64,000 nucleotides of DNA from a virus. Shown here one piece after another: positions 4,645 through 35,863 of this stretch. The notes below the pieces were generated by a model. The model was not told where the DNA came from. It worked only from the letters and a program-made list of their open reading frames with translations, and searched no databases. Position 1 is the stretch's first letter; each line of letters opens with the position of its first letter. The DNA is taken from positions 33,025 to 97,024 of the IMG/VR virus record IMGVR_UViG_3300042898_002309. One strand, given 5' to 3'. The position numbers and the translations under genes are program-made.

Positions 4645-4661
4645 TAAACCTATAAAGTTTA
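4645..4661. promoter_or_regulatory. Palindromic operator-like site TAAAC-N7-GTTTA
   Basis: taaacctataaagttta; same spacing at 10708 and 63062, one mismatch at 39941 and 48182. Confidence 0.55.
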
Positions 4662-7600
4662 TGTAAACATAAAAGGAAAAACATTAGATCCCATTACATA
4701 TGCCATTTGAACAGAACCACCTTTTTTACCTTGTGACATATTATTATACATATCAGGTATTTCATTACTTATACCTTGTTGATTCATATAATTATTTAAC
4801 AATAGTCCTTGTGATTTTTCTGGTAATCCTGCAGCATTTATTTTATTAGCATATGCAAAATAATCTTTTTGTTGCTCAGGAGAAAAACCTCTATTAGTAT
4901 CACGGTAATACATTCTACCACCTGATCTAGGATCAACTGCATAATTTGGATACATTTGATTCATTGCATCAGTTTGCCACATATTAGTAAGTAATGTATT
5001 TTCTGAGTCAACTAAGTTATGTCTTAGTGCACGTTTAGTATTATCAAATTGTTGATTAGCAATTACATTTTGATCATATAACTGTTTATTTTGTGCTTGA
5101 TTATATCTTTGAGCTTCATTTCTTATTTGTGCATTACTACCAGCAAATTGATTAGCTAAACCAACATTAAGATTATTATATCTTCCTAATGTATCTGCTG
5201 CTTGTTTAGCTCCTTGTCCTTGAATAGATGCTGCTCTTGCAGATAAATCTTGTGCCCCCATAAATTGCCCTAATGCTTGATTAGTTATATTTGCTTGTTC
5301 AGATTGTGCTGCTAACTCTCTAGTAGGATCATAGAAAGTAGGATCTAACATTTCAGGATGATAACTAGCTGCCCATGGTAAATATTTTTCAGCACTAAAA
5401 TAATCTAATCCAGCATTAAGTCTATTTAATTTATCTTGTGCCCATGGTGCTGGAGGAATTTCAACATTTGGTTCTTGTTGGTATTCATCTTGAACAATTT
5501 CTTCTTCAGTTGGTATACCTTCTACATCAGTTTCATATAATTCTTTTTTTGTTGGAACATATGCTCCTTTTTGTTCTCCAGTAGTATCAGTATATACCCA
5601 ATCAATAGGAGAAATTCTAGGATTTTTTTGTCCTTTTTCATCAGCCGCACCACTTTCATATGCTCCCCAATTTTCTAATGCTTTTTTTTCTTCTGGTGTT
5701 TTTACTTTATTATTTATTGCATCAGTAAATCCTTGAAAAGTAGCTTGTTCTAATGCTGTATCCCCTAATTTAATTCCAACTCTATCAAATGCTTTTCCTA
5801 AATCAGTAATGTCTTTATCCTTATATATTTTATATTGATTTTGTGCTTCAGTAAGAGTTATTGGTTTTCCAGCATCTGTTATAATTTTTTTAGCAACCAT
5901 TTGTTGAGGTGTCAATAATTTACCAGTGGATGCATTTTCAAAATATCTTGCTTGAATACCATGTGCTTGTAATGCAGTATTTCTTTTTTGATGTTTAAGA
6001 AAAGCATCTCTTATTTCTTCATTACTAAACTGTTTATCTTTATATGCTGTATATGCTTTACTAGTTTTACCAGTACTACTTCTATATTTAGTTTCATCTT
6101 TAAGTGCTGCACGTGTATAATCTGCAAGAACTTTTGTAAATTCAGGAGTATTAATGGATTTTTCCATTTCTCTAAATGTTGCAGCATATTCTTTTGCATT
6201 ATTCCAAGTAGTTCCTAAATCTTGACCAGTGTATGGATCTGATCCTACTGTTCTTTGAGATACTTTTTTATATTTACCATCTGGCATAAGTATATAAACT
6301 GGTTTAGTACCTGCTTTAGCAAATTCTAAATCTCTTGCTTTAGCATATTCTTCATCAGTTTTATATTCACCTCTATTAATTACAACAGCCCCTTCAGGAA
6401 TATTATATTTAACTTCACCTTTACTTTGGTATCTAGTTAATGAACCACCATTTCTATATCCTGAAGGAGGAGTATAACCATCAGTTCCAATACTACCTTG
6501 TGAAAATCTTGGAGTTTCACCTTTAAAACTAGGTGTAAAAGGAGCACTTTGATTAGTTTTTAAACTTGCATTTACAAAATTATTTTCACCTTGATTAGTT
6601 GGCACTTCAGGTGTTGAAGATACTTCAGGTACTTCAGGTGTTGAAGGTGTTGAAGATCCATAAGTATTATAATAATTATTTTGACTTTGTGGTCTTACTT
6701 GTGTGTTATCATTATTTTGATTAGATGCTGCACCAGATTGAGGATAACCATAATAATTATTAATTACATTTTTTTTATTTTTAATTCTACGTTTATTATT
6801 ACCACCAAATAAATTACTAAAGAATCCACCACCACTTGTAGATTGATTATTTTCTGAATTATTTTCTGAACCAAATTGTTCCATAGGATTAAAGCCACCC
6901 ATAGTAGTTCCATATTGAGCCATAGGTGTTTCCATCATTTCCTCTTGTGGATTCTGTCCTTGAGGACCTTCAGCCATTTCTTCTTGAGGATTTTGTTGTC
7001 CTTGTTGCATTACTTCTTGAATAGCAGCCTGTGCTTCTTCTTGAGGCATACCAACTTGTACAAGTATTTGCATTATTGCTTGAGGAGGAACTTGATTTTG
7101 TAGTAATTGCATTATTACATCTTCAGGTTGTGCACCTTGTTGTAACATTTGTTGAACTTGTTGAACCATTTGTGCAAGAGGATCAGCACCACCTTGTTGT
7201 TGTGGTGCACCTTGTTGTTGCTGTTGTTGCATCATTGCCATTTCTTCAGGAGAAGGTTGACCTTGTTCCATTCCTTGTTGAGCTACTCTTAATCTTCTAC
7301 CCATTTGAAAGCCATATCTTCCCATTGGAGATTCCATAGACTCTTCTTGAGGATTTTGCATACCTTGAACTTGCTCTACAGATTCTTCTTCAGGAGATTG
7401 TACACCCATACCTTGATTCTCATATGGATTTTGCATTGCTTGACTATTAACCTGTGCTTCTGGTTTAGCTTTTTGTGGTATCAAGTCTTCATCTTTAATG
7501 CCCATTTGTTCCATATATGGTCTAGCTACTTCAGGTATACCTTGTGGGAATCCTTTTTTACTTTCTTGTGCAATTGCTAATGCACCAAGTTTCATATTAA

Positions 7601-8093
7601 TATTTTTAATCATTAACTCAGCAGACTTTTTATCTACTTTATCTGAGTTAGGATCTTCTAATATTTTTCTATACTTATTAATATCATATGGTTTAGCTAG
7701 TTCAGCAGGAGTAAATGACCCAGTTTTTTTACCAAATTTAGCAAGTATTTTTGGATCTTTAATTTTCATAGATGCAGTATCACTGAATATAAATGTACCA
7801 TCAGGCAAATTTAAAGGAGTTCCTCCATTACTATGTCTTTTTCCACCAATAAGCATGTGTTCAGGAAACCCATCTCCATTGATATCACCAAATGCAGACT
7901 CACCTTTTTCAGCTTCTAGATTAGCTTCATCTCTTGGTACTTGTTTTAGATACCTAGTATTTTCAAGATGTCTTGATGCAGCATTCATATCAGCTCCACC
8001 AAAACTAATTACTTGCTTATTTAAATTGTTACCTGTAAAACCTCCTGATTTTGCTTGTGGTAATCCTTTAGTTATTTTTACTTTAAAGTACAT
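4659..8093 (-). CDS. Putative internal virion/cargo protein with Gln/Met-rich low-complexity region, 1144 aa
   Basis: N-terminal ANLEAEKGE...GKRHSNGG...FIFSD block, which I recognise from crAss-like virion proteins. Q/M-rich middle, Q/N-rich helical C-terminus, several xxGG motifs. Confidence 0.6.
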   Translation of the reverse strand: MYFKVKITKGLPQAKSGGFTGNNLNKQVISFGGADMNAASRHLENTRYLKQVPRDEANLEAEKGESAFGDINGDGFPEHMLIGGKRHSNGGTPLNLPDGTFIFSDTASMKIKDPKILAKFGKKTGSFTPAELAKPYDINKYRKILEDPNSDKVDKKSAELMIKNINMKLGALAIAQESKKGFPQGIPEVARPYMEQMGIKDEDLIPQKAKPEAQVNSQAMQNPYENQGMGVQSPEEESVEQVQGMQNPQEESMESPMGRYGFQMGRRLRVAQQGMEQGQPSPEEMAMMQQQQQQGAPQQQGGADPLAQMVQQVQQMLQQGAQPEDVIMQLLQNQVPPQAIMQILVQVGMPQEEAQAAIQEVMQQGQQNPQEEMAEGPQGQNPQEEMMETPMAQYGTTMGGFNPMEQFGSENNSENNQSTSGGGFFSNLFGGNNKRRIKNKKNVINNYYGYPQSGAASNQNNDNTQVRPQSQNNYYNTYGSSTPSTPEVPEVSSTPEVPTNQGENNFVNASLKTNQSAPFTPSFKGETPRFSQGSIGTDGYTPPSGYRNGGSLTRYQSKGEVKYNIPEGAVVINRGEYKTDEEYAKARDLEFAKAGTKPVYILMPDGKYKKVSQRTVGSDPYTGQDLGTTWNNAKEYAATFREMEKSINTPEFTKVLADYTRAALKDETKYRSSTGKTSKAYTAYKDKQFSNEEIRDAFLKHQKRNTALQAHGIQARYFENASTGKLLTPQQMVAKKIITDAGKPITLTEAQNQYKIYKDKDITDLGKAFDRVGIKLGDTALEQATFQGFTDAINNKVKTPEEKKALENWGAYESGAADEKGQKNPRISPIDWVYTDTTGEQKGAYVPTKKELYETDVEGIPTEEEIVQDEYQQEPNVEIPPAPWAQDKLNRLNAGLDYFSAEKYLPWAASYHPEMLDPTFYDPTRELAAQSEQANITNQALGQFMGAQDLSARAASIQGQGAKQAADTLGRYNNLNVGLANQFAGSNAQIRNEAQRYNQAQNKQLYDQNVIANQQFDNTKRALRHNLVDSENTLLTNMWQTDAMNQMYPNYAVDPRSGGRMYYRDTNRGFSPEQQKDYFAYANKINAAGLPEKSQGLLLNNYMNQQGISNEIPDMYNNMSQGKKGGSVQMAYVMGSNVFPFMFT

Positions 8094-8102
8094 AATATAA
8101 AA

Positions 8103-10661
8103 TTATAAGTATTCTAATTCACCTCCATTAGCAATGAAGTCATCTATTTCTTCTTGAGTCATGTATTGAGTATCCTCATCATCATCTTCAATATTTCCAC
8201 CAGTAGCATAAACTCCTCCACCATATTTTGAAACACCATTGAATCCCATTTTATTTGGTCTAAATAATCCTGAGTTAGGATCATAGTCTCCTTGATCATA
8301 AGCATTATTTATACCATAATTACTTTCAGCAGATGTTGCATTTGCTAACATTTGATTTTCTTGTTTATTAGCTCTAACTTGATCAGTAATATTTGCAAAA
8401 GCATTACCTGCTAATAAACTTAAATCTCCAAGTCCTGCTTTATCAATATCCCAAGCTTGTTTATTTCTAAATTTTTGAGAAACACCTTCTTGATCTTCAT
8501 ATTTAATACCTTCATTAACATAGTTACCATCTGAACCCATTCTTACTGCTGGAGTTTCACCTGTTAATGGATTTTTTTTAGGTTGTGAAAATGGATTTTC
8601 TAATAAATCTCCAGGTTCAGACATTTTAAAATTTGTATTTCTTTTTTTAGTTATATTACCTTCAAAGTCAACACAATCACCTTTATAATCTTTTGTTGAA
8701 CCCATTGGACAATCATTTATACCAGTTTCAAAACCTTCTGCAGCTTTATACAATTCTGGTATAGATACATCTCCTCCATAAGCATATTGAGTATAATCAA
8801 TTGGCCCACCATATGCTTTATATGCAGGTCCTTGATGTCTAATTAAAAAATCTTGATATGAATTTTGATCATCTGATAAATTAGAATTTGTACTACCAGC
8901 TGCTAATGCTTCAATTTTTTTTGCTTGATCAATTTGTTTTTGATTTTCTGGTGTATTAATAAATTCAGATTCAGGATTTGAATTTGTAAAATTATTATTA
9001 CCAAGAAATCTATTTAACTGTCTATCATCTCTATTTTCTTTTCTTTGAGCTCTTGGACTTATAGGTGGATAATAAGGTTCATTACTAGTAACTAATGGAC
9101 TATTTTCTGAAGATTCAACAAGGTTATTAGGTCCTTCATATCCAACTCCCCATGGTATTAGTTTAGCTCCAAGTTGTTGTATTCCTGGTATTTTTGTATT
9201 TACCATTCCTCTACCTAATCTTTCACCAAAAGTTTTACCTCTATATTGTTCATCACTTGGATCACCCATTGATGCATTATTTACATTACCTTGACCTGGA
9301 TTATAAGTAGGTACTTTAAATGAAGCAATTTTTGGTGTAGCTCCATAGTTATATGTCATCTTTTTAGGTCTACCAAATATTCCATATTTATCTACATTAA
9401 CACTTGATGGTAATCTACCTGCAAGATCTGGTCCTGTATATCTTTCACCTGATTGAGTATAGTATGGAGAACCAACAGCTTTATTATATTGTTCACCTCT
9501 ACTAATAATAGGAGATCTAAATATACCTTGTCCATATCCACCTTGATTACCTCTTTGTTGCATGTACTGTTGCATCATATATTGTTGCATCATTTGTTGC
9601 TGTTTTTGGGCAGTAGTAGTATTTTGAGTAACTAACTCATCATATTTCTTTTTATAGTCTTCAGTATCTGCAACTTTTTGATCTTCAGGTCTTTCAACAA
9701 AATCTGATATACCATTTTTATTTACATCTACAATACTATTACCAGTACCTTGATATTTATATAATGATCCACCACGTTTAGCATATCTTTGATAATCTAA
9801 ATCAGAATCTTGATACTGTTCATCCATTGATTCATTATCACCTCCTCCTATAAATTTATATAAACCTTGACCTGTATTACCTCCATATTGTTCTAATGCT
9901 GCAATATCATTTTGAGTATACATGTTATCAGAAAAGATATGTCTTCTAGCTGCAGTATTTTTAGCTAAATGATCATATGGACTTTCAGTATCTATTTGTT
10001 CTTGATTTATACCACCATCTTGTGCATATGCACCAACTTGTGGATTACCATATATAGCATTATATTGTTCTTCAGCTGCTTGTTTTTGTTGTGCTGAATT
10101 AACTGATTCACTAATACCTTTAAAGAAATTACTTACATGTTGTTCTCTACCACCAAGTACATCATCTGCTCCTGGAGAAGGTGTATTTCCACCTTGAGCC
10201 ATTTTTGCAAACTTAGTATATTGATTTATAAAACTTCTTTTACTTGGTTTAGAACCACCATATCTTGCAACTTCTTCTTCTTCTTCTGCTCCTGCTGTTC
10301 CATCATCAACTACACTATTGATTATATCTTGATTACCAGTAACATACATTTGTCTTCTTGATTCTTCTTCTGCAGCATTTTGTTCATCAAGTATTTTTTG
10401 TTGTTCTAATACTTGTGCTTCTGCTAAAGCAATTTTTTGTTTTTTTGAAATATCACTTTCACCATATAAATCATCAGCTTCTTCAATATATTTATCTGCA
10501 GTAGTTTCATCAATACCAGCTTGTATTAACTCTTCTTTAATTGCATCAATATCATAATCATCTACATTCATTTTTTCAGCAATAAAATTTCTTATTAATT
10601 GCTCTTGAGTAGGTTCATTTGACTGACCACCTGCTTTATATATTCTTACTCTCTTTTTCAT
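8103..10661 (-). CDS. Putative internal virion protein, low complexity, dense in xxGG motifs, 852 aa
   Basis: Long ORF in the cargo cluster with about 10 motifs such as YKAGG, ARYGG, MAQGG, AQDGG, AKRGG, AYGG, plus an acidic C-terminal motif. Confidence 0.55.
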   Translation of the reverse strand: MKKRVRIYKAGGQSNEPTQEQLIRNFIAEKMNVDDYDIDAIKEELIQAGIDETTADKYIEEADDLYGESDISKKQKIALAEAQVLEQQKILDEQNAAEEESRRQMYVTGNQDIINSVVDDGTAGAEEEEEVARYGGSKPSKRSFINQYTKFAKMAQGGNTPSPGADDVLGGREQHVSNFFKGISESVNSAQQKQAAEEQYNAIYGNPQVGAYAQDGGINQEQIDTESPYDHLAKNTAARRHIFSDNMYTQNDIAALEQYGGNTGQGLYKFIGGGDNESMDEQYQDSDLDYQRYAKRGGSLYKYQGTGNSIVDVNKNGISDFVERPEDQKVADTEDYKKKYDELVTQNTTTAQKQQQMMQQYMMQQYMQQRGNQGGYGQGIFRSPIISRGEQYNKAVGSPYYTQSGERYTGPDLAGRLPSSVNVDKYGIFGRPKKMTYNYGATPKIASFKVPTYNPGQGNVNNASMGDPSDEQYRGKTFGERLGRGMVNTKIPGIQQLGAKLIPWGVGYEGPNNLVESSENSPLVTSNEPYYPPISPRAQRKENRDDRQLNRFLGNNNFTNSNPESEFINTPENQKQIDQAKKIEALAAGSTNSNLSDDQNSYQDFLIRHQGPAYKAYGGPIDYTQYAYGGDVSIPELYKAAEGFETGINDCPMGSTKDYKGDCVDFEGNITKKRNTNFKMSEPGDLLENPFSQPKKNPLTGETPAVRMGSDGNYVNEGIKYEDQEGVSQKFRNKQAWDIDKAGLGDLSLLAGNAFANITDQVRANKQENQMLANATSAESNYGINNAYDQGDYDPNSGLFRPNKMGFNGVSKYGGGVYATGGNIEDDDEDTQYMTQEEIDDFIANGGELEYL

Positions 10662-10707: not shown

Positions 10708-10724
10708 TAAACATTAAAAGTTTA
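10708..10724. promoter_or_regulatory. Palindromic operator-like site TAAAC-N7-GTTTA
   Basis: taaacattaaaagttta, upstream of the 852-aa gene. Confidence 0.55.
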
Positions 10725-13700
10725 TTTGATTCTTTCTATGATATATCCTGCTTTTTCTAGTGCTTTAATTTCATCATCATCTAAGTCATCTTCCCATGAT
10801 TCAATATCACCACCATTTTTTTCTTGTTGTAATGCACCTACACCTAATGTTCCTGCAATTGGAGCAACTGCCCAAACTTTATTAAATAACTTAGCAGCTG
10901 ATTTTCCATTATCTTTTTTTATTATTTTAACAAACTGAGTATCTACTGGAGTATTTCCTAAAGCAACTTCTTTAAACATTTTATCTGCTTGTTCAGGAGT
11001 TATTATATCATCAGGAGATAAATCAAAATATTTTCTAAGTTCCATTATTCTTGCCTGTACTTCTGTTGGGTCTGATAAATAATCTATAAGTTTATCAACT
11101 TCTTTACTATTATTTATTTTTTTTCTTTCTTTAAGATAAGGATAATCAATTGCATCTTCAATAATTTTTTTTTGATCAGTTAATTCTAAAGATTGTGCTT
11201 TTGTCCAATCATGTGTTAATTCATGTATTCCTGTACTTAATCTATTTTTAGGATCTAACCATCTTGAAACCCAATTACCATGTCTTATAAATTGTGGTTT
11301 AGTATCTAAAGCATTAGGCTTAGTTTTAATTAATTTATCAACTTTAGGAATTTCAGATTCTAATTTATTTTTTGAAAGTGGAATATAAGTATTTTCAGGC
11401 ATATTTAAAATTTCTCCTGGAATATCTTCATGAGTATAATTAATTCCTGCATTATCTTTATGAATATTAGGAAATTCAGTTAATTGCTCTATTATAGGAT
11501 ATTCTTGCAATCTTCCTGCAGGTTTATATCCACTAGTAAATTTAATTACTTCTTCTAAATTATGTTTTGCAATTGGTGAATTTTCAACTGTACCAAATAC
11601 TGAATGATAGTTAGGTGATTTTAAACTTTCTTTATAACTATTAATAATTTTTTCTTGAGTTGCAGGATGACTCACCCATCCTTGCATCCAATTTTCAGCT
11701 TCTCTTAATGTTTTAAGTCTCTCTGGTGTTTTAGTTATAACATCATAAAATCTACCAGGTAATTTACCAATTCCTTTAATCATGTTAACAGCATTAGGAG
11801 AACCTGGTAATGTTTTACCAATTGCTTTAGTACCTTGATTTAAATATTTAGCACCTTGATTTATATCTTGAGCAAGAGATTTAACACCTTGTATAGCAGT
11901 TCTACCAGATCCTGGTACACCTGCAAATGCTAAACCTGTTTCTAAAAGACCTGTTGCATAATTACCTTTATGTAATTCATTACCAGCATGACCACCCCAA
12001 TATCCTGGATTAACTATATTAGCAAGATCAGAAATTTCAAATTGGCCTTTAGTTTGTCCTGTAGCTTTTAAATATTTATCATACTCAGGACTTTCAGTAT
12101 TCATTAAACCTCTTCCCATTCCAGGTATATATGCTTGATTACCTGTTAATGCATTACCTGCCATAAGAATTGGGTGAGCAATAGCAGCTTGAGTTACATC
12201 TAAAGCTTTTTCAGCAAAAGACATTTTATTATATTTATTCCACTGTTCTTTTTCAAATGCTGCCTGTTCTTTTTTTCTTGCTTCACGTTTTGCAGTTTCT
12301 TGTGGAGAATTATAAAATGCTGCATTATTAATATCACTTACAACTTGTTTAGGTATTACTGTACGTGTATTATCACTTACAGGTCCTCTAGGAATTGCAT
12401 CATTTATTGCTTTTTGTTTTGCAAGTTTTTCTTTTGCAAGTTTTATAGCTTTTTCTTTATTAAGTTCTTGTTGATATTTTTTTACAAGATCTTGCTTATT
12501 TAATTCTGGTGAGTCTGAATTTTTCTTTATATATTGTTGCTTATGATCTTGCATAAGTAAATTAAACTGAGGTGCAGGTTGCTCTAATGGTTTTTTATAT
12601 ACTGTTTTACCACCTTGTGCTTTATCTAATATACCTCCATTTTTAAATCCTCCTTCAATAGTTGCTGGTTGTAAATGCCATTGATCTAATGCTGCACCAG
12701 TACCTATTGTTAAAGGTATAGCAGCTTTATATATATTAGGATTAGTCATGTCAAATTTACCATTATTTCTTAACAAAGATTTAATATTTTTTGGATTAAT
12801 TATAGAATAGTTATTTTTATTAATTGGTGCACGCAAACCTCTTAGTACATCTCCATTAAATCCAGCATACATACCAGCATCTTTGATATTTTTAAAATTA
12901 ACTGCATCATATCCTAATTTTTTAGCAATATCCGTAACTTCAGCTGTATCATATTTTTTCTTTGGCTTTATTCCCAAAACATTAAAATTTTCCTGACCAA
13001 TTCTATTAATTAACTCATCATGATCAAGTTTTGTCCATAGTTTATTTTTAGCATCAAAAATTAATGGGTTTTTTGTTTTAGCAGCTAACTCATATCTTTT
13101 AGAAAAAGGATTTAATTTTAGTCTGTATGAATCAGCATCTTTAGGAGAATTAGCTAAATAAACCCCATCTTCTAAATCACCTACTTTACCTTTTCTAAAT
13201 TCTTGAATATTACCTTTATTAGAACCATGATATCCTGTAACATAGTTATCTCCAAAAGCATTTTTAAAGTTTTCACTATTCTGTTGTACAAATTGTTCAG
13301 GAGTTCCTTTATAAGCAGAACCATCTGAATTTTTCATCCAAGTTCCATTAGTTTTAGTAGCTTCTTCTATTTTAGAATACTCTTTTAATAAAGGTTCATC
13401 TGCAAGTATTTCTTTATTCCAATTACCCCAATTAATTTCAGACTGAAAAGGAGTTCTATAATCGTCTACTTTAGATAATAAACCTGTTTCTGTTCCTAAT
13501 GCTTTACCTAAATATTTAACACCTGGTTTTACACCTAATCTTACTGCATCATCAAGTAATCCTGAACCTGGTATAAATCTTAATCCTTCTAAAAAAGCAG
13601 AACCATAATTACCCTTTCCTATATTTCTTACAACTTTATCTCCCGCATCAAAAAGATTTAATGTACTATTTAATGTATTACCTACAAGATTTCTTCCTTC

Positions 13701-16700
13701 TACTACACCAGGATCAATACCTGCCATACGCATTTCATTAATATTATGTGGCATATTTTCTGCACCTCCTCCTGATATAGCATATTCTGCAGCAGTAAAT
13801 GGATTAGTAATATATTCCCATGCTCTATTTGAATTACTTTGTGTTGGTGCTGCTTGTACTGCATCAGGTTCACCTATTTGACCTACACCTGCACTTTTCC
13901 AATGCATGTTCTCAATATCATCTAAATCTTTTTGAGTAATTGCATATCCATTTTTTTTACCACTTGCAATATAATCTTTTTGAGAAGTTGCAATTTTATC
14001 TTTAACTTTTGTATATGCATCTTTACCTGTTACTTTAAACTTTTCATCAAATAATTTTTGTGCAGTTTTTTGTTGTACAGTGGGTTGAACTGGTTTCTTT
14101 TTACTTGGTGTAACATTTTTTTCATTACTCCATCCAGCATTAGATTTACTATTTTGATCATTATTATATCTATCAAGTGCTTGTTTTTTTTGTATTGCTA
14201 AACCTTGTCCAACTATTTGTCCTAATGGAGAAGTATAAAAATTATAAGGTTTTTCTTTAACAGCAACTTTAGGTTGTACTTCACCTTTTTTTTGATAAGA
14301 ATCTAATGCTCCACCTTGTCTAAATCCTCCTTCAATAGTTGCTGGTTGTAAATGCCATTTAGTTCTAGGTACTTTTTTATATCCCTGCAACCAATGTTGT
14401 TTATAAACATTAACATTTGGATGATTAAATGAAAGAGGTGCATTACCTGGTGTTGTAATTTCATAACCAAAATTTTCAAATGGAGATACACCATTTGTAT
14501 TAAAATTTGCTATATCATGAGAATTAGTTACTTCAACCATATGAGGACCTTCAAATTTATTCCAATTCCACACTCTATTATTTTTTCCACCAGCAAATGA
14601 TGTTTTATCAATTACTTCTTGAGGAAACTTATATTTTTTAGCATCAAATGGAACACCTTGACTATAATATGTTTCTTCAAATGCTTTATTACTAAAACTT
14701 GGATCATATACATCTACTTGATTACTTCTAAATACACCAGATTGTTGTGCATCTTCTAATCCTTCTTTACCTAACATTCTATATGCTGATGTAGGTTCAG
14801 GTTTCCATGCCCAGGGATTTACATCACTTACTTTAGATAATAAACCTGTTTCTGTTCCTAATGCTTTACCAACAGTTTTAGCACCTTGTGCAACATCATC
14901 AGCAACTGACTTAAATCCTGCTTTTGATCCTATTAATCCTGCTGCAATTTCTGCAGTTCCTGCTGCTGCTTCTTTCCAATCTTTAGTACCTTGTGATACA
15001 TCATACCAATCTCTAACATTTTTAGGAGTTTGATAAAAACTATTAGCCATACCTGCGGCCATTGCAGCATTACCTACAGTAGCACCTGGTACAGCAGCCA
15101 TTCCTGGAAGTGACATTGCTCCTATAGCACCTGCGGCTTCTAATGCAGCTGGAGCAGCAAAAGGTAAAGTCCAAAACCAATCAGCAGAACCTGCACTTTG
15201 TGGACCAAAATTAGGACCATGTAGTTTACGTGCCAATTCTTTTGACTGTTCTTGCCATTGCCAGTTTCTATATTTTTCTGCATATTCTTTAGGAGAAAGT
15301 TGTATTCCTTTTGGTCTATTATTATTAGCAGGTGTAACAGTTACTTCATCTAGATATCCAGTACTAGATATTATGCCTTTAGCTTTGTCACTTTCATATT
15401 TAGCTTTTTGTTGTTGATAATTTTTATACCATTCCTCATCAGGTAATGTTCCATCTGGTTCTCCCCCTTCTTTAAAATTTTCAGTAAGAACTGCTGGTTT
15501 TAAATGTTTTTTATTATCTTGAATTACATTAGTATTAGAAGTACCAGTATTAATATTATAATTTTGACTACCAGCAGCCTCATCTGTCCATGGAACTTCT
15601 TTGTATGTAGTAACTGGTCTTTGTCTTTTTATATTTCCTAATACAGGATCTTTAATCCAATAATCTTCTACACCTTGAACTGGTACACGGAGTGTTCTTT
15701 GTACAGCTTTTTGTACAGGTATAGTCATTTGTTCTCTAACAGGTTTAGATAAAATGGATTGCTCAGGTCTTTTAAATTCTTGATATGGTATATTATTAAG
15801 TGGTGTAACTTCTTCAATAGATTGTACAGGTTGTACAGGTTTTTTATATACATTATGTATTACTGGTTTTTTATATTGTCCAACTCTATGTAATCCATTA
15901 TTATATGTAACAAAACCTACTGGTTTATTTAATTTTTTAGTTTTATCTGAAAAAGAACCAATATTTAAATAATCCATATAATCTTTGTCACTGAGTTTTA
16001 TACCAAATTGTTTATCTTGATCTTTTAAATTTTTTAATGAAGTATTATATGACTCATATTTTTTTGTAGCAGAATTTATAGTTTGATTTTTTGGTGTTTT
16101 TTTAGTTTTATCTGCTTTAATAACATTATTTATTCCACTATTATAAAAAGATAAACTATCAGATTCAGCTGCAAAGGCTTTATTATAGTCATCTCTATTA
16201 GTATGTGTTACTGTTCTACCTGTTTGAGCTTTATGAAGTATACCACCATATTTACGTGTAACTACAGGTTGAGCACCTCTTTGTTGTTGCTGATATTCAA
16301 GATTTTTTTGTTGGAAAGTATCACTATCTCTTTTTCTTCTAGCTGCCTCTCTTTGTTCTTGAGTATATCCTTCAGGTAAATCTAAATTCTCATCACCAGC
16401 TAATACACCATATCTTGGACCGGCATAATGAACAGGTTTTTTATATGGTTTAGCTAGAATAATTTGTTGTTCAGGTCTTGTAAATTCTTGATATGATATA
16501 GGTTTAAGAGGAGTAACTTCCTCAACAGGTTTTACTGGGTATTTTTTTAAATAATCTGCAGTAGGTGTATTACCATTTTTATCTAGTATTTTTTTATTAA
16601 CAGGTTTTTTATCTATTGGTTTTACTGATTGTATTGAAGAAGATAATCCTAATGTTTTTAATTTTGATTGAGGTATTCCAGATGCACCATATTTTTTAAA

Positions 16701-18245
16701 TCTTATTTTTATTTCATCATCTGAAAGCATGTTTGCAGGTTTTATAGCAAGAGGATCATAATAAGGCAGCGTTGTAATATATCCAGGTAATTTTTTATCT
16801 ATTTCTTCATCTTTTTTAGTTCTATAAATCCATTCATTTATAGATTTTTCTGGATCTTTTAATTTAATTGCTGCACCAATATTGATTAATTTTTTTTTAT
16901 AATTTGCTTTTTTTATAGGATCATTTTCTAATTTATAACGTATTATATTGGTTGTCCAACTATTTGAATATGATGGAGCATTAGATGTAGTCATTTTTTG
17001 TATTTTAGCTATATCTGGTGATACATTCTCTGCAAATGTATATTTTTTAGGTTGATAAGTAATTTGTCCTTGTGGTTTTATTCTAGTATCATATTTTAAC
17101 AATGGAGCTTTTGGATCTATAGCTCCTGTAATTACGTCAGACATATAAATAGCATTAGCATTTTTATTATTTTTAATAATAGTTTTATTTGAACTAGAAA
17201 CACTAGGGTGCGCTAAGGTTTCTTTTTGAATGTTTTTTAAATCCCAAGAACCATCATACCAAAGACCAATTTCTGGATTATTATAATATGGTTTTAAATT
17301 ATCATAAAAACCTTTTAACTTAATAGCATTATTATATAATGATAAACTATCAGAAGCTGTAGCAAGTCCTGTTTGTGCTTTAACTAGTTCATGTTGTACA
17401 AAACCACCCGCTTTAAATCCTTTCATCATTGGTGCCACTTCTTTATAGTGTTCCGCAAAATATTGTGCTTCTTCAGGAGTTCTGAAGTTTATATCTTCTT
17501 TACTTGGGGGAGGGTTTTCATTATACTCTAATTCATTACCACCTTTATCTTGTAACAATGGTACTGCTTGATTTCCCATAGAAGCCATAAAATGTGTACC
17601 TAAATCTCCATTTCCAAACTCATAAGTTTTAGGATTAGGTGAAACCATCCTTTGAGCTGCTGGATTTTTAAATTCGTTTTCAGTAGCCATTCTAGCTTTC
17701 ATCATAGCATTCATAGCATTTTTGTCAACAGGTATTTCTTCTGCTCTAGGACCCGCTGTATTTTGTGGACCACCATCTTGTGCTTCAGGTAATTCTTCTA
17801 CTACATAACCACCATCTCTATATGCTTGTATTTCTTCATCAGTAAGATCAAGATCTTCATAATCAGCTTCTCCACCATTTTCTTTAGTAGGTAGATTAAA
17901 ACCATAATTTAATTCATAGTGACTTAATGGATTAGGATTAAGATTAATAGTACCAAGTTTAGAACCACCCTTCTTAGCCATAGGTGTTTCATCTACATAA
18001 GATGCACCAGGAAAGTTATAATCTTGATTAGGTTGCATCATTGATCCAGGACCAACATTAGGTTGAGCCCATACAGGATAAGGTACACCTTGCATAGTAA
18101 TATCATTACCAGGGATTCTAGTTTTTTGACCTGGATATTTCCATTGACCTGCTGGATCAGTTATTATATCTTTTGGTTTACCTGGTGCTTTTGCTTTACC
18201 TAATTCTGATACAGCTTTAGATAATACTTTTTTATTGAATCCCAT
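10722..18245 (-). CDS. Modular polyvalent virion protein, 2507 aa: two ADP-ribosyltransferase-like modules and a C-terminal zincin metallopeptidase-like module
   Basis: HELTH (nt 11211-11225) with a downstream PTEVQARI fits a zincin HExxH...E site. YHGS...F...GVYLA (nt ~13150-13232) fits an ART-like signature; a second module has AYRMLG...YYSQG. Internal repeats are present. Confidence 0.6.
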   Translation of the reverse strand: MGFNKKVLSKAVSELGKAKAPGKPKDIITDPAGQWKYPGQKTRIPGNDITMQGVPYPVWAQPNVGPGSMMQPNQDYNFPGASYVDETPMAKKGGSKLGTINLNPNPLSHYELNYGFNLPTKENGGEADYEDLDLTDEEIQAYRDGGYVVEELPEAQDGGPQNTAGPRAEEIPVDKNAMNAMMKARMATENEFKNPAAQRMVSPNPKTYEFGNGDLGTHFMASMGNQAVPLLQDKGGNELEYNENPPPSKEDINFRTPEEAQYFAEHYKEVAPMMKGFKAGGFVQHELVKAQTGLATASDSLSLYNNAIKLKGFYDNLKPYYNNPEIGLWYDGSWDLKNIQKETLAHPSVSSSNKTIIKNNKNANAIYMSDVITGAIDPKAPLLKYDTRIKPQGQITYQPKKYTFAENVSPDIAKIQKMTTSNAPSYSNSWTTNIIRYKLENDPIKKANYKKKLINIGAAIKLKDPEKSINEWIYRTKKDEEIDKKLPGYITTLPYYDPLAIKPANMLSDDEIKIRFKKYGASGIPQSKLKTLGLSSSIQSVKPIDKKPVNKKILDKNGNTPTADYLKKYPVKPVEEVTPLKPISYQEFTRPEQQIILAKPYKKPVHYAGPRYGVLAGDENLDLPEGYTQEQREAARRKRDSDTFQQKNLEYQQQQRGAQPVVTRKYGGILHKAQTGRTVTHTNRDDYNKAFAAESDSLSFYNSGINNVIKADKTKKTPKNQTINSATKKYESYNTSLKNLKDQDKQFGIKLSDKDYMDYLNIGSFSDKTKKLNKPVGFVTYNNGLHRVGQYKKPVIHNVYKKPVQPVQSIEEVTPLNNIPYQEFKRPEQSILSKPVREQMTIPVQKAVQRTLRVPVQGVEDYWIKDPVLGNIKRQRPVTTYKEVPWTDEAAGSQNYNINTGTSNTNVIQDNKKHLKPAVLTENFKEGGEPDGTLPDEEWYKNYQQQKAKYESDKAKGIISSTGYLDEVTVTPANNNRPKGIQLSPKEYAEKYRNWQWQEQSKELARKLHGPNFGPQSAGSADWFWTLPFAAPAALEAAGAIGAMSLPGMAAVPGATVGNAAMAAGMANSFYQTPKNVRDWYDVSQGTKDWKEAAAGTAEIAAGLIGSKAGFKSVADDVAQGAKTVGKALGTETGLLSKVSDVNPWAWKPEPTSAYRMLGKEGLEDAQQSGVFRSNQVDVYDPSFSNKAFEETYYSQGVPFDAKKYKFPQEVIDKTSFAGGKNNRVWNWNKFEGPHMVEVTNSHDIANFNTNGVSPFENFGYEITTPGNAPLSFNHPNVNVYKQHWLQGYKKVPRTKWHLQPATIEGGFRQGGALDSYQKKGEVQPKVAVKEKPYNFYTSPLGQIVGQGLAIQKKQALDRYNNDQNSKSNAGWSNEKNVTPSKKKPVQPTVQQKTAQKLFDEKFKVTGKDAYTKVKDKIATSQKDYIASGKKNGYAITQKDLDDIENMHWKSAGVGQIGEPDAVQAAPTQSNSNRAWEYITNPFTAAEYAISGGGAENMPHNINEMRMAGIDPGVVEGRNLVGNTLNSTLNLFDAGDKVVRNIGKGNYGSAFLEGLRFIPGSGLLDDAVRLGVKPGVKYLGKALGTETGLLSKVDDYRTPFQSEINWGNWNKEILADEPLLKEYSKIEEATKTNGTWMKNSDGSAYKGTPEQFVQQNSENFKNAFGDNYVTGYHGSNKGNIQEFRKGKVGDLEDGVYLANSPKDADSYRLKLNPFSKRYELAAKTKNPLIFDAKNKLWTKLDHDELINRIGQENFNVLGIKPKKKYDTAEVTDIAKKLGYDAVNFKNIKDAGMYAGFNGDVLRGLRAPINKNNYSIINPKNIKSLLRNNGKFDMTNPNIYKAAIPLTIGTGAALDQWHLQPATIEGGFKNGGILDKAQGGKTVYKKPLEQPAPQFNLLMQDHKQQYIKKNSDSPELNKQDLVKKYQQELNKEKAIKLAKEKLAKQKAINDAIPRGPVSDNTRTVIPKQVVSDINNAAFYNSPQETAKREARKKEQAAFEKEQWNKYNKMSFAEKALDVTQAAIAHPILMAGNALTGNQAYIPGMGRGLMNTESPEYDKYLKATGQTKGQFEISDLANIVNPGYWGGHAGNELHKGNYATGLLETGLAFAGVPGSGRTAIQGVKSLAQDINQGAKYLNQGTKAIGKTLPGSPNAVNMIKGIGKLPGRFYDVITKTPERLKTLREAENWMQGWVSHPATQEKIINSYKESLKSPNYHSVFGTVENSPIAKHNLEEVIKFTSGYKPAGRLQEYPIIEQLTEFPNIHKDNAGINYTHEDIPGEILNMPENTYIPLSKNKLESEIPKVDKLIKTKPNALDTKPQFIRHGNWVSRWLDPKNRLSTGIHELTHDWTKAQSLELTDQKKIIEDAIDYPYLKERKKINNSKEVDKLIDYLSDPTEVQARIMELRKYFDLSPDDIITPEQADKMFKEVALGNTPVDTQFVKIIKKDNGKSAAKLFNKVWAVAPIAGTLGVGALQQEKNGGDIESWEDDLDDDEIKALEKAGYIIERIK
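12644..12682. repeat. 39-bp direct repeat B (encodes WHLQPATIEGGF), copy identical to 14321-14359
   Basis: taaatcctccttcaatagttgctggttgtaaatgccatt read at both positions. Confidence 0.95.
13467..13508. repeat. 42-bp direct repeat A (encodes GKALGTETGLLSKV), copy identical to 14829-14870
   Basis: tactttagataataaacctgtttctgttcctaatgctttacc read at both positions. Confidence 0.95.
14321..14359. repeat. 39-bp direct repeat B, other copy
   Basis: Identical to 12644-12682. Confidence 0.95.
14829..14870. repeat. 42-bp direct repeat A, other copy
   Basis: Identical to 13467-13508. Confidence 0.95.
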
Positions 18246-32480: not shown

Positions 32481-32933
32481 TTATTTCAAGAATAATAATT
32501 TATACTTGCCTGAGTTAAGAGTATCTTTAACTGTATCAAGTGAATTAACAATTTCAGAGTAAGGCATTTTAGCTTGTAATCCTGTTACCATAGATGTAAT
32601 ATCTCTGATATATGCTAAAGCATCTGCAACTGTAGCTAATTTTCTTGGTGCTGCTTCTGAACATTCTAAAATCTTTTCTGCTGCTCCTTGATATCCTTCT
32701 GCAAGTGAATCAGCATGATCTGGTAAAGCATCATATAATTCATTTAAAGCTTTGTGTGCAGCATACGCTCCTGAACCTTGAACTTTTAAATGTAGTTTAT
32801 GAAATGATGTTGCTGCATTCATTAATTCTGTAACACATGCAGCCGTAGCTGAATCAATTGATCCTGATGCTGGAGCTGAATAACTTGCATATAAAGTTGA
32901 GGACTCTCTCTTTAGTAATTTGGGTTTTTCCAT
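32481..32933 (-). CDS. Ferritin/Dps-like four-helix-bundle protein (DUF5856-like)
   Basis: HKLHLKVQG..AYAAHKALNELYD.L...ADSLAE..QG is a Dps-like pattern. Confidence 0.75.
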   Translation of the reverse strand: MEKPKLLKRESSTLYASYSAPASGSIDSATAACVTELMNAATSFHKLHLKVQGSGAYAAHKALNELYDALPDHADSLAEGYQGAAEKILECSEAAPRKLATVADALAYIRDITSMVTGLQAKMPYSEIVNSLDTVKDTLNSGKYKLLFLK

Positions 32934-32944
32934 TATTATAAATA

Positions 32945-33643
32945 TTAATTGTTTCTTTCTGCTGTTTCTGTTCCTCTAGAGAATTGATTACCTGATTCAA
33001 TATCACCAGCAAGTATACTAACTGCTTCATCAATTAGTAATTCAACTATATCATCTTTAAATTCACATTCTGTATTTGTAGTACTTTCTACACTAGTATA
33101 AGGATCTACACATCCATTTATCTCAATTTTTATTGGTTGTCTATAATATGTAAGACTACCAGAACTAATATCAAAATCATTATTTGTATACACATTGACT
33201 CTATTATTTTTTAAAGTTGCAAATGTTTCAGCCCACTCAAAACTAGGTCTCTTAGCATTATCAAATAATAATTGATTTAAGTTACCTTCTTCTGCAAGAT
33301 ACACTGACATTCTTCTGTCATCACAACATCCTTTTTTAGCTTGAATATCTACACGTTTCCATTGTAAATAATCAGGAGGTAAATCAGAATAAGAAGATAT
33401 ATCAGATTTAACAAATGGTACATTAATAGTATCTAGTAGTATTTGTAAATCATCTATTCTTCTAGTAGACTGCTCATCACCTTCTTTCACAATATTGATA
33501 CCATGAAGTTGTCTTCTGATCCATTCAACCTGGGCCTTATTAAAAGACTCAACTACTTGCCAACATTCAATGTTGTCATAGTCCTGGCTGTCCAATTTGT
33601 TAAGACGTTGTTTTACTTTTATAACTATAGTACTATTAAGCAT
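32945..33643 (-). CDS. Head-tail adaptor / ring protein (crAss-type)
   Basis: FNKAQ, LPPDYL, LTYYRQP and IVELLIDEAV motifs; downstream of the major capsid gene. Confidence 0.6.
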   Translation of the reverse strand: MLNSTIVIKVKQRLNKLDSQDYDNIECWQVVESFNKAQVEWIRRQLHGINIVKEGDEQSTRRIDDLQILLDTINVPFVKSDISSYSDLPPDYLQWKRVDIQAKKGCCDDRRMSVYLAEEGNLNQLLFDNAKRPSFEWAETFATLKNNRVNVYTNNDFDISSGSLTYYRQPIKIEINGCVDPYTSVESTTNTECEFKDDIVELLIDEAVSILAGDIESGNQFSRGTETAERNN

Positions 33644-33646
33644 CTG

Positions 33647-33751
33647 TTATTTCTTTTTAGGTAAAGATTTTACAACCATAGCATTTCTAGCTTCATTAGC
33701 TTTTCTAAATGTAGTTAAGGGATGTTCTTTAGTTATTGTTTTCTTAGCCAT
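33647..33751 (-). CDS. Small basic protein, 34 aa, below the ORF-track cutoff
   Basis: MAKKTITKEHPLTTFRKANEARNAMVVKSLPKKK; tiles between its neighbours. Confidence 0.6.
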   Translation of the reverse strand: MAKKTITKEHPLTTFRKANEARNAMVVKSLPKKK

Positions 33752-33755
33752 AATA

Positions 33756-33983
33756 TTATTTTTTAGTATATGTACTTAATACATTCATTTGTTCTTGAGC
33801 AAGTTTTTTAACATCTGCCATCATCTTTGTATTCTTTCTAATCTCATCTGCTCTCTTTAATGTACTTAGAGCAGATTCAACTTCCCATTTTCTCATTTCT
33901 GCTTTTGGTGCAGCAGATATAGAAATACCTACTGAAGCTTTCTTCACAGGTGTTTTTGTAGTTGTTGGTTTTTTAATTGCCAT
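33756..33983 (-). CDS. Small basic protein
   Basis: Lys-rich; KWEVESALSTLKRADEI helix. Confidence 0.6.
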   Translation of the reverse strand: MAIKKPTTTKTPVKKASVGISISAAPKAEMRKWEVESALSTLKRADEIRKNTKMMADVKKLAQEQMNVLSTYTKK

Positions 33984-33993
33984 AATATTTAAT

Positions 33994-34554
33994 TTAACAG
34001 TTCCATTTTCTCAAAGCAAGAGTTTTTCTTGTTGGTTCTCCATTTGGTTTTTTAGCAGGACCTGGCATCCCTGACATTCTAGCACAAAAACTTTTTCTTC
34101 TTTTAGCATCTTTGCTATCAGGATCAAGTTTAGAAGGTTTAGTAGTAACAGCCATCTTAAGTTTGCTTCCAGGATTAGCAGCTCTATAACTTGCTACTCC
34201 TTTAGCATTTAAACCACCTGTTTTATTTTTACCTTCAGATCTTGTCCATGCAGCTGTAGTTCCTCCAGTTTTCATTTTATGTGCACTATCTTTCATAATA
34301 GTACCATCAGGCATTTTATGATAACCTTTTTTTATTTTATCATTATTTTTATGCCAATCTTTTTCAGCTTTAACACCTTGAGCAACAGTTTTAGCATTAG
34401 ATGTTCTAGTTAAGCTAATAGTATCATATGAACCTTTATTTTTATTTGTATGTTTCACCATGATATCACCAATTTTACCTTCACCTCTTTTAGTAGTCTT
34501 TTTATAAACTACATGTTTTTCAGTACCTGTAGTAAGTTTAACTTTAGCTGCCAT
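33994..34554 (-). CDS. Basic protein with C-terminal DUF6321-like domain
   Basis: AWTRSEGKNKTGGLNAKG...RRKSFCARMSG...LRKWNC module follows a KMKTGG linker. Confidence 0.6.
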   Translation of the reverse strand: MAAKVKLTTGTEKHVVYKKTTKRGEGKIGDIMVKHTNKNKGSYDTISLTRTSNAKTVAQGVKAEKDWHKNNDKIKKGYHKMPDGTIMKDSAHKMKTGGTTAAWTRSEGKNKTGGLNAKGVASYRAANPGSKLKMAVTTKPSKLDPDSKDAKRRKSFCARMSGMPGPAKKPNGEPTRKTLALRKWNC

Positions 34555-34556
34555 AA

Positions 34557-34709
34557 CTATTTCTTTTTAGTTGTTGCTTTAATCTTTTTTTCTTGTTTAA
34601 GCATTTGTGCAGTAGGTTTTTTACCAGAACCTTTTGCAGCCCTAATATTATCCCAAAGACCTTTTTGAGATACACTACCATCTTTACGCTTTAACATTTC
34701 CTTTGCCAT
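34557..34709 (-). CDS. Small basic protein, 50 aa, below the ORF-track cutoff
   Basis: MAKEMLKRKDGSVSQKGLWDNIRAAKGSGKKPTAQMLKQEKKIKATTKKK; tiles exactly between its neighbours. Confidence 0.7.
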   Translation of the reverse strand: MAKEMLKRKDGSVSQKGLWDNIRAAKGSGKKPTAQMLKQEKKIKATTKKK

Positions 34710-34710
34710 C

Positions 34711-35088
34711 TTATTTTACTTTTTTAAGTCTAGGATTTTTTGCTTTAGCTTTAGCACTAGCTTTTCTAGCTGATGAAGCTAATATAGCTCCAGCAACTTC
34801 TTTACTAATTCCTTGTTTAGCAGCAATACTAGATTGTACAGCTTTAAAACCTGGATGAGCAGTACCTCCTTTGGCCATTTTTTTATTTTTCATTTTTGCA
34901 CCAGAAATTCTATCAGCAGCAGTTGGTTTAGGATTATTATCTATACCAGCTATAATAGATAAAATACCAAATGGACTAGTTCCACCAGATTTCATCATAG
35001 GTTTTCTTTCAGGAGCACATGCACCAGAAGCTGTTCTTACTTTAGTATTTTTGCAAGATGTTTTAACTGCTCTATTAGTAGTTGCCAT
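34711..35088 (-). CDS. Small basic protein with MKSGG/MAKGG motifs
   Basis: Lys/Ala-rich ORF within the operon. Confidence 0.65.
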   Translation of the reverse strand: MATTNRAVKTSCKNTKVRTASGACAPERKPMMKSGGTSPFGILSIIAGIDNNPKPTAADRISGAKMKNKKMAKGGTAHPGFKAVQSSIAAKQGISKEVAGAILASSARKASAKAKAKNPRLKKVK

Positions 35089-35090
35089 GA

Positions 35091-35642
35091 CTATTTCTTT
35101 TTAGATTTAACTACTCCACCTTTTTTCTTTGTTGGTACAGATTTTATTTTACTAGTTGAACTATTTACAGTATCTTTAAAATGTTGATCTGATGCTGATT
35201 TAAGATCTTTAGATGTTTTTTCCCGTGCTATTTTATATTGTGTATCCATTAATTTCTTTTCATCATAATACTTCATTACTGATGAATCTCTTGGTTGACC
35301 AGTTGATGTCCCAAGTTGAGCTTTAGGTAAAGATTTTGCTGCACCACCAACTTTTTTATAACCCATTTTATTTCTTACTACAGTTGGAAGTTTAGATAAA
35401 CCAACTTTAGTAACTGGCACTGTTTTTAAACTTCCACCTTTTTTCATAGTAGCAATACCAGAATCATTTGGACCTGTTGGACCAGTTTGTGCAATACCGT
35501 AAATACCCATCTTTTGATTAGTATCACCTTTAGTTTCTTTTACAACTCCAGCTCCTGGTTTACTGATACTAACACTTTTAGTTGTTCCGCCTTTTGCCAT
35601 TTTTTTAGTGCCTCCACATTTAGCACATCCCATCTTTGCCAT
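35091..35642 (-). CDS. Basic protein with four xxGG motifs
   Basis: MAKGG, MKKGG, KKVGG..LPKAQLG, KKKGG. Confidence 0.65.
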   Translation of the reverse strand: MAKMGCAKCGGTKKMAKGGTTKSVSISKPGAGVVKETKGDTNQKMGIYGIAQTGPTGPNDSGIATMKKGGSLKTVPVTKVGLSKLPTVVRNKMGYKKVGGAAKSLPKAQLGTSTGQPRDSSVMKYYDEKKLMDTQYKIAREKTSKDLKSASDQHFKDTVNSSTSKIKSVPTKKKGGVVKSKKK

Positions 35643-35662
35643 AATAATTTATTTTAATATTA

Positions 35663-35863
35663 TTAACACTTTTTACCTTTAGTACCTCCCATTTTCATTT
35701 TAGGAGATGGCTGTGGTTTATTTACTTTACCTGGAGTTTTTCCACCTGGAGTTTTTAATGCATACACTGGAGAATTGGTTCCACCTACTCTACCTGTTGC
35801 TCTTTGTTGTACATTTACTTTTGCGTTAGCCATGATATATAGTTTAAAAAAGCATACCAGCAT
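35663..35863 (-). CDS. Small basic protein (true start probably MANAKV at 35833)
   Basis: Lys/Gly/Pro-rich, ends KMKMGGTKGKKC; the annotated 5' extension overlaps a hairpin. Confidence 0.6.
   Translation of the reverse strand: MLVCFFKLYIMANAKVNVQQRATGRVGGTNSPVYALKTPGGKTPGKVNKPQPSPKMKMGGTKGKKC

Follow-up and report, generated by a model that had tools for sequence, protein, structure and literature searches.

A short di-glycine motif punctuates internal and ejected proteins of a distant crAss-like phage, in which it marks the C-terminal end of modules. The phage is known from metagenome sequence alone, and the analysis centres on a window of 64 kb (positions 33,025 to 97,024 of the 97,024-bp viral contig IMGVR_UViG_3300042898_002309, hereafter G000; GC 30%, completeness estimate 82%); all positions are those of the window unless noted otherwise. 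The motif is genuine and lineage-specific; selection acts on it at the protein level, and it is linked with the ends of modules in disordered linkers. At about even odds, we favour the reading that it constitutes protease processing sites, i.e. a Gly-Gly maturation code akin to LxE in T4, SxE in phiKZ and MxGG in adenovirus. Crass-like phages rank with the most abundant known viruses, and what is at stake is their way of loading, storing and ejecting cargo protein by the megadalton.

Definition and enrichment of the motif

The motif has the form Phi(M/F/Y)-[K/R/A]-x-G-G, and in many cases L-x-[K/R]-[A/Y]-Q-x-G lies 1-8 residues further on. Its strict form, [MFY][AKR].GG, was counted and compared with the expectation from composition-preserving shuffles. 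It was found 10 times in three large cargo proteins of 2507, 852 and 1144 aa (shuffle mean 0.68) and six times in the small basic proteins encoded at 33756-35863 (shuffle mean 0.15), which makes 16 occurrences in the motif-bearing set against ~0.8 expected; the lack of enrichment over composition-matched shuffles that an initial annotation of this DNA had named as refuting is not seen. The strict motif is missing from ~26,000 other residues of the 97-kb genome, of which 8,715 belong to four further giant proteins and 17,193 to the rest. The motif is absent from the portal, terminase and tail proteins, which the initial annotation had called largely free of it, and also from the major capsid protein (MCP). 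The strict pattern was defined after the data had been seen; the 16-to-0 contrast still holds. In G001, a complete relative used for replication, the counts for the same classes were 7 versus 0.33 (large cargo proteins), 3 versus 0.2 (small basic proteins) and 4 versus 2.7 (rest).

The initial annotation spoke of more than 25 occurrences, and every peptide it listed is present at the gene given. That number is borne out by a loose form only (M/F/Y/W at P6-P3 in 33 of 54 GG sites), with 16 for the strict form; KENGG, AQDGG, EKNGG, GKKGG, LPQAKSGG and MAQYG lie outside the pattern it had stated, and KNKTGG is part of the DUF6321 domain itself (see below).

The preferences upstream of Gly-Gly are precise. 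Among GG sites of the motif-bearing set, the frequency of M/F/Y/W at P5 is 0.33 (background 0.11) and that of K/R at P4 is 0.44 (background 0.14), M/F/Y/W reaching only 0.06 at P4; GG sites outside this set show no preference at P5 or P4. The second element is enriched as well, whether written GG..[AY]Q..G (8 versus 0.4 expected) or L.[KRSQ][AY][QK]..G (9 versus 0.9 expected), and it is confined to motif-bearing proteins. At seven sites L-x-[KRSQ]-[AY]-[QK]-x(1,2)-G lies within 1-8 residues past GG, the composite spanning 15-20 residues; in G001 the second element also exists without GG, e.g. SLPKAQTGNTVGP. An acidic tail, GG-x-[ED]n-..EEI......G[YG]x[ILV]E, is the third element in common: it lies at the C-terminus of both the 852- and the 2507-aa protein, with one further, internal copy in the latter.

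The DUF6321 junction

The main features of the small basic proteins are as follows:

33756-35863, minus strand: six small basic proteins (K+R 22-24% in the three largest), including the next four
33994..34554, minus strand: 186-aa basic protein with a variable N-terminal extension, MKTGG (34261-34275) and DUF6321 (33997-34254)
34711..35088, minus strand: 125-aa basic protein with MKSGG (34981-34995) and MAKGG (34864-34878); orthologs in related contigs
35091..35642, minus strand: 183-aa basic protein with MAKGG (35586-35600), MKKGG (35433-35447) and KKVGG then SLPKAQLG (35310-35348)
35663..35863, minus strand: 56-66-aa basic protein, ending in KMKMGGTKGKKC, with MKMGG (35684-35698)

DUF6321 (PF19846) occupies aa 108-184 of the 186-aa protein (1.6e-21, 77.1 bits versus a cut-off of 28.5). 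All 15 distinct fused orthologs of this phage group (15/15) read [MLY][KA]xGG[ST][ST][PA]AW, 3 residues before the domain, behind N-terminal extensions of 16 to 172 residues which comprise several unrelated sequences. Standalone orthologs (n = 7) start MAK[TS][PA]AW at the place where the GG of the fused forms ends. Similarly, the standalone 66-aa protein begins MANAKV, and the form fused behind another module, as seen in two relatives, reads ..KTGG/MVNANAK (the slash marks the joint here and below). The GG codons at the DUF6321 junction show synonymous variation while the residues are fixed, and selection therefore acts on the peptide.

Two other candidate explanations were discarded: a recombination signal in the DNA as the full account, because the GG codons vary in this way, and an internal translation start at the Met of MKxGG, since fused junctions also have Y/L and cargo sites F/Y at that position.

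The same junction was then read in a wider set of phages. The proteases of T4 (gp21), phiKZ and SPN3US cut after Glu in [L/I]xE or S/A-x-E (PMC9026906, PMC5694885). A search among 1.8 billion representative proteins gave 3,055 DUF6321 relatives (E up to 0.001), which are very diverse phage proteins with the domain nearly always at their extreme C-terminus. Junctions were read in the best 150 of these 3,055: 127 have [LIVMF]xE 0-2 residues before the domain, typically ..LYE/TAAWRRKEGK, and the other 23 consist of six Phi-K-x-GG, one standalone and 16 other cases. In the T4-like cyanophages P-SSM2, P-HM1, S-B43 and ACG-2014f the junction is VNE/G, VSE/E, VSE/G and LPE/G, respectively. The usage of the two motifs is also reversed within the extensions themselves: those of E-type fusions contain [LIV]xE[TSAG] 421 times versus 147 expected and Phi-K-x-GG once versus 3.5 expected, whereas GG-type extensions contain Phi-K-x-GG 3 times versus 0.1 and [LIV]xE once versus 0.7, i.e. 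at background level. Each lineage therefore punctuates proteins of one kind by a motif of its own, and one of the two motifs is a known protease site. Protease sites are favoured because 127 of these 150 distant fusions carry the T4 consensus at the very same junction; this number overstates the independent cases, since LxE-type fusions are mutually related, and at least ten unrelated upstream contexts are visible among them. DUF6321 probably serves as a basic peptide inside the head that maturation cleavage sets free, and the comparison suggests a widespread aquatic-phage domain freed in each lineage by that lineage's own maturation protease. A literature search on DUF6321 returned nothing relevant and no mention of a role as an internal head peptide. 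The domain is found in the head modules of T4-like and T7-like cyanophages.

Module joints in the 2507-aa polyvalent protein

10722..18245, minus strand: 2507-aa polyvalent cargo protein, directly downstream of the muzzle gene
17808-17822, 17403-17417, 15462-15476, 14310-14324 and 12633-12647, minus strand: strict motifs YRDGG, FKAGG, FKEGG, FRQGG and FKNGG in this protein, respectively
17367-17408, 16218-16247, 14283-14315 and 12609-12638, minus strand: composite motifs GG..LxKAQxG
17790-17876 and 10725-10814, minus strand: copies of the acidic tail, each beginning right after GG

The largest motif-bearing protein contains an ART-PolyVal domain at aa 1672-1831 (1.2e-10, above cut-off). It has the features by which polyvalent proteins are recognized, namely several unrelated effector domains including one of PolyVal type, arranged here as cassettes with repeated borders. 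Its homologs are mosaics of 512 to ~1630 aa that share no more than the N-terminus, the acidic tail and some of the cassettes. Where a module was gained, lost or swapped among these relatives, the joint lies exactly after GG. This is the case for a 42-residue insert in G001 (RKGG/TLQ...KFKSGG/SKLG) and for a 121-residue insert in this phage (AQDGG/PQN...FKAGG/FVQHELVKAQTG); G002, a second relative compared, fuses ..MRKQGG/ straight to the acidic tail where this phage continues ..RKYGG/ILHKAQTG. The acidic tail is found after GG in three unrelated contexts.

Inside the gene, two pairs of DNA repeats (12624-12682 with 14301-14359, and 13467-13527 with 14829-14889; 88-90% identity, containing exact stretches of ~39 and ~42 nt), which encode WHLQPATIEGGF and GKALGTETGLLSKV, flank two unrelated enzyme cassettes, an arrangement that fits cassette exchange by recombination. 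Together with the extensive mosaicism of the 2507-aa relatives and with KKMxxGG units, the tandem number of which grows and shrinks between orthologs of the 183-aa protein, these repeats are in line with a flexible, recombination-tolerant Gly-Gly joint lacking a dedicated reader and copied along with shuffled cassettes, the enrichment then reflecting shared linker ancestry. We regard this explanation as improbable: the same motif recurs across proteins otherwise without similarity, GG and the P5/P4 preferences persist in homologs down to ~25-30% identity, the GG codons vary synonymously, and a plain flexible linker needs neither an aromatic residue or Met at P5 nor a basic residue at P4.

Conserved islands in the 852-aa protein

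8103..10661, minus strand: 852-aa cargo protein, 14 GG sites
10626-10640, 10188-10202, 8772-8786 and 8196-8210, minus strand: strict motifs YKAGG, MAQGG, YAYGG and YATGG in this protein, respectively
9741-9773, minus strand: composite motif GGSLYKYQGTG
8106..8201, minus strand: acidic C-terminal tail GG-N-IEDDDED..MTQEEIDDFIANGGELEYL, beginning right after GG

Homologs of the 852-aa protein number 109, and all 69 of the 69 close ones have 9-17 GG sites. Near invariance (at least 63 of 70 aligned sequences of the family) was seen for ten GG islands, which form the best-conserved columns of the alignment, with variable, gap-rich spacers between them. Distant homologs of 1100-1480 aa (25-30% identity) keep ARYGGSK..KKQMGG as well as the C-terminal ..SKxYGGxIYQxGG..EGDE.DMTEEEI..FIANGGELEYL. 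An AlphaFold2 model of the protein, built from a 96-sequence alignment, has a mean predicted local distance difference test score (pLDDT) of 54; segments with pLDDT <50 make up 56% of the chain and contain 13 of the 14 GG sites, the sole confident GG-containing element being a helix (836-844) followed by a strand (848-851) in the acidic tail. Because 13 of 14 sites fall in such segments, the model suggests that the GG islands are accessible linkers, and their conservation at low pLDDT points to linear motifs in disordered linkers and not to parts of a repeat fold.

The 1144-aa protein and cargo protein C1 of crAss001

4659..8093, minus strand: 1144-aa cargo protein
6444-6458, minus strand: motif YRNGG, with the composite GGSLTRYQSKG at 6417-6449
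7467..7961, minus strand: folded N-terminal domain, aa 45-209 (AlphaFold2)

The islands of the 1144-aa protein that are kept in relatives are LPQAKSGG and PMAQYG..MGG in the N-terminal part and KKGGS in the C-terminal part. Relative to these homologs, aa 266-543 contain two long low-complexity inserts (Q-rich and N/S/T-rich) adjoining islands, and the first of them is bounded by a duplicated PM[AG][QR]YG...G motif.

Residues 46-209 were modelled with pLDDT 84-93 (block-of-10 means). The best of 48,161 PDB representatives for this domain was residues 425-552 of 7qog_M, with a Z-score of 5.0 that is within the chance range, a root-mean-square deviation of 5.2, 97 aligned residues and 24% identity. 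This chain is the cargo protein C1 (gp45) of crAss001, and the likeness had been anticipated from a shared GG-x-H-..-GG ... F[IV]FSD pattern. Foldseek found no match for the N-terminal model; PF25725 (crAss_CARG1) gave no match at E <10 in six frames of the genome; and sequence homology of the cargo proteins to crAss001 gp45/gp46 or to any PDB chain was rejected, as none was detected by BLAST or by PDB-sequence search. Judging from the model, the domain may resemble C1's portal-bound domain, the Z-score alone being weak.

C1 is itself enriched in Phi-GG (10 versus 3.9 expected, p 0.007), with AYGG209, AFGG332, AFGG427 and AYGG562. In the crAss001 virion the portal-bound segment is modelled from 425 to 552 and starts A-F-G-G-W, the tail-barrel helix 214-245 starts four residues past AYGG209-210, and C1 is treated as one continuous uncut chain threaded through the portal (PMC10172136). 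Neither proteolysis nor a protease is mentioned in the text of this structural atlas as searched (PMC10172136). A search for gp45 homologs returned near-identical sequences only and was uninformative on the conservation of the FGG sites. The two cargo systems are alike in protein size, in gene neighbourhood downstream of the muzzle gene, in Phi-GG enrichment and possibly in the portal-bound fold that the 1144-aa domain may share; they differ in that sequence homology was not detected, in domain order and in the published model being one uncut chain.

A proposed Gly-Gly maturation code

As a cleavage signal, the motif would be recognized by an endopeptidase that severs the chain behind Gly-Gly while the head matures or shortly after ejection. 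On this view, both the small basic proteins and the polyvalent 2507-aa protein would be polyprotein-like precursors; among the modules freed by cleavage would be the ART cassettes, the acidic tail and the basic peptide of DUF6321, and cleavage would also strip short N-terminal leaders such as MKKRVRIYKAGG and MYFKVKITKGLPQAKSGG, like the removal of the capsid-targeting sequence in T4. It is the cutting of the peptide bond itself, with its timing and its enzyme, that we infer here. The initial annotation had likewise viewed the cargo genes as polyproteins cut into small peptides, a proposal that gains from the location of the motif in disordered linkers, the exact module joints, the starts of standalone orthologs and the T4 consensus at the DUF6321 junction, and loses from the failure to find a protease gene. 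A giant protein related to crAss001 gp47, which is expected to stay whole, lacks the motif, and this was counted in favour of cleavage. If the code is what it seems to be, the mature products of giant cargo genes that cannot otherwise be annotated would be predictable from sequence, and the code would point to a missing protease.

In T4, phiKZ and SPN3US, internal head proteins are cut many times, the removal of N-terminal capsid-targeting sequences included (PMC9026906, PMC5694885). The codes of T4 gp21, phiKZ gp175 and SPN3US gp245 ([L/I]xE, S/A-x-E, AxE) resemble the present one in being motifs of 3-5 residues in internal head or ejected proteins, often several per protein, near N-terminal leaders and absent from proteins that stay whole; they also share with it the enrichment (16 versus 0.8 here, replicated in G001), and T4-type lineages have LxE in DUF6321 fusions exactly where this phage has GG. 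The difference is that their motifs end in Glu and the one described here ends in Gly-Gly, that an assemblin-like S77/S78 protease was not detected here and that cleavage in the present case is a prediction.

Adenain of adenovirus, at (M/I/L)xGG-x, and pS273R of ASFV, at GG-x, cut after Gly-Gly with a hydrophobic residue upstream, and their substrates include small, very basic DNA-associated core proteins as well as larger internal proteins. The parallel with adenovirus that the initial annotation drew is inexact: adenain has M/I/L at P4, whereas in this tailed phage the hydrophobic residue is at P5 and P4 is basic, and a clan CE or other GG-specific cysteine protease was not found. Encapsulin cargo-loading peptides, which are short, Gly-rich sequences with a conserved Leu borne by cargo destined for the interior of an HK97-fold shell, bear a resemblance, and a resemblance only, to the GG-[S/I/A]-L common to unrelated cargo proteins here; they are terminal tags, one per protein, in contrast to the internal joints of this phage. 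Lastly, the processing of polyvalent proteins by embedded peptidases has been predicted with no linker or cleavage motif named (Iyer et al. 2017, PMC5512222). The 2507-aa protein is like them a multi-cassette virion protein with ART-PolyVal, with the difference that MPTase-PolyVal was not detected and that its HExxH cassette is missing from relatives.

Search for a protease

49057..49542, minus strand: 161-aa YaeF/YiiX-type permuted papain-like enzyme (PF05708, 3.1e-7; NCBIfam YaeF/YiiX)
11211..11225, minus strand: HELTH (HExxH) motif, aa 2341-2345 of the 2507-aa protein, in its last cassette (sequence inspection)

Several results weigh against cleavage, the first of which is the outcome of the search for its enzyme. 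No maturation protease (assemblin-like S77/S78/S80, ClpP/S49) was found with Pfam and NCBIfam on 50 proteins, a search that a divergent or novel fold could escape, nor with PHROGs on 19 proteins (two scans; for the families just named, 10 head-module and neighbouring proteins) or Pfam on all seven giant and cargo proteins, and no clan CE cysteine protease (C5, C48, C57) appeared in any Pfam scan. What the contig lacks, 18% of the genome, corresponds in G001 to early genes and not to the late region. The only protein with a cysteine-peptidase fold found in the scans is the 161-aa enzyme, in which the catalytic dyad may be a His (FTHSAV) together with a Cys (LYCSEY), neither of them placed by alignment to the profile. 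By its sequence it stays a candidate protease; no fused forms of it were found, and a role in lysis is at least as likely because a lysozyme-like gene adjoins. The HELTH cassette is, from its motif, a possible zincin peptidase. It has no Pfam, PDB-sequence or Atlas support, MPTase-PolyVal (PF18818) was not found at E <10, and neither the G001/G002 homologs nor the viral contigs, which retain the GG motifs, have the cassette; the HExxH cassette was therefore ruled out as a general protease, since relatives with the motifs lack it. A literature search on Gly-Gly prohead-protease sites and on proteolysis of crass cargo proteins found nothing relevant.

The other adverse points concern the sites themselves. 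Two GG sites have Pro at P1'. In the 852-aa family the conserved stretch of each island takes in ~10-12 residues, flanking GG on both sides, and a binding motif fits this two-sided conservation and the 15-20-residue composite better than a bare cut site would. The initial annotation placed the motif at boundaries between modules; this stands for the 2507-aa and small proteins and fails for the 852-aa family, in which 474 distinct indels show no enrichment of their ends near GG and length varies in the spacers. Finally, the Phi-GG at 425 of C1 is intact in the virion model, which starts A-F-G-G-W.

Several of these points fit a linear motif that is not cut, in which the islands would dock the disordered cargo chain onto a common partner (portal, ring proteins, inner face of the capsid or DNA) or act as hinges beside docking segments, the proteins remaining whole like beads on a string. 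We hold this to be the main rival, less likely than cleavage but serious. It draws on the islands being the best-conserved parts of the 852-aa family while spacer length is free, on the length of the composite motif, on the Phi-GG enrichment of C1, in which both ordered segments (425-552 and helix 214-245) start at or just after Phi-GG in a chain modelled as continuous (PMC10172136), on the C1-like portal-binding domain predicted in the 1144-aa protein and on the failure of the Pfam, NCBIfam and PHROGs scans to reveal a protease. On the other hand, standalone DUF6321 and 66-aa orthologs are conserved without the junction motif (the 66-aa protein keeping other GG sites), the motif always ends the upstream module, where T4-type relatives have a protease consensus, and it is absent from the four other giants, which presumably are packaged too. 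The general packaging code that the initial annotation offered as its other option is weakened because the motif is absent from these four giants, one of them related to gp47; docking by a subset of the proteins is a narrower and possible version of it.

A dual role, cleavage together with targeting as in the capsid-targeting sequences of T4, would by analogy reconcile most of the evidence. Taken to its full extent, and only tentatively, this crassvirus-related lineage may mature its internal proteins as the adenovirus core is matured: a phage or host protease would cut after Phi-K-x-Gly-Gly, freeing histone-like basic peptides (DUF6321 and others) and separating effector modules, while the motif with L-x-K-A-Q-x-G would double as a prohead-entry tag.

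Gene layout and other observations

All the late genes are on the minus strand. The other features used to describe the window are:

42763-44967, minus strand: terminase
40006-42756, minus strand: portal
38639..39892, minus strand: 417-aa acidic, Glu/Lys-rich charged protein ending in ..SRTGGNNMFKRF, between portal and MCP
36987-38603, minus strand: MCP
18245-23542, minus strand: crassvirus muzzle homolog (PF25731, 2.2e-31)

A 336-aa protein is listed after MCP in the late-gene order, and an IHF/HU-like protein and ring proteins are also among the late genes. From its position and composition the 417-aa protein is probably the scaffold; Atlas leads to scaffolding families are weak, and Pfam and PHROG searches gave no match. 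The large proteins past the muzzle gene are of 2507, 852, 1144 and 1044 aa, followed to the left of the window by proteins of 2116, 3469 and 2086 aa, the 2116-aa one being related to crAss001 gp47 (1.9e-16), a putative RNA-polymerase subunit by annotation. Close relatives of the phage (MCP identity 90-100%) are numerous in viral metagenome contigs, and some of these are complete at 118-122 kb.

MCP ends in ..NPITGGSF and the 417-aa protein in ..SRTGGNNMFKRF, so that both have GG a few residues before the end. Terminal Cys residues are frequent in G000 11451-34478 (left of the window and window positions 3-1454) and in the small proteins at 33994-35863: the C-termini read ..NNSPIC in the 2116-aa protein, ..DPFKC in the 3469-aa protein, ..RKWNC in DUF6321 (kept in cyanophages) and ..KGKKC in the 66-aa protein, and MAC and MKC are the N-termini of the 3469-aa and 2086-aa proteins, respectively. 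A similar basic N-terminal strand is seen in three otherwise unrelated motif-bearing proteins, MYFKVKITK (8093 to ~8040), MKKRVRIYK (10661 to ~10626) and MAAKVKLTT (34554 to ~34525), all on the minus strand; in the first two GG follows within 12-18 residues, which is reminiscent of T4 capsid-targeting leaders. In the early region, at G000 1568-3947, a DUF2201_N/PhageMetallopep plus VWA-like protein is followed by a ~390-aa protein that is probably an AAA/MoxR-type ATPase (the AAA match comes from a pooled scan and was not mapped to an open reading frame); the pair would be a metallopeptidase-like system.

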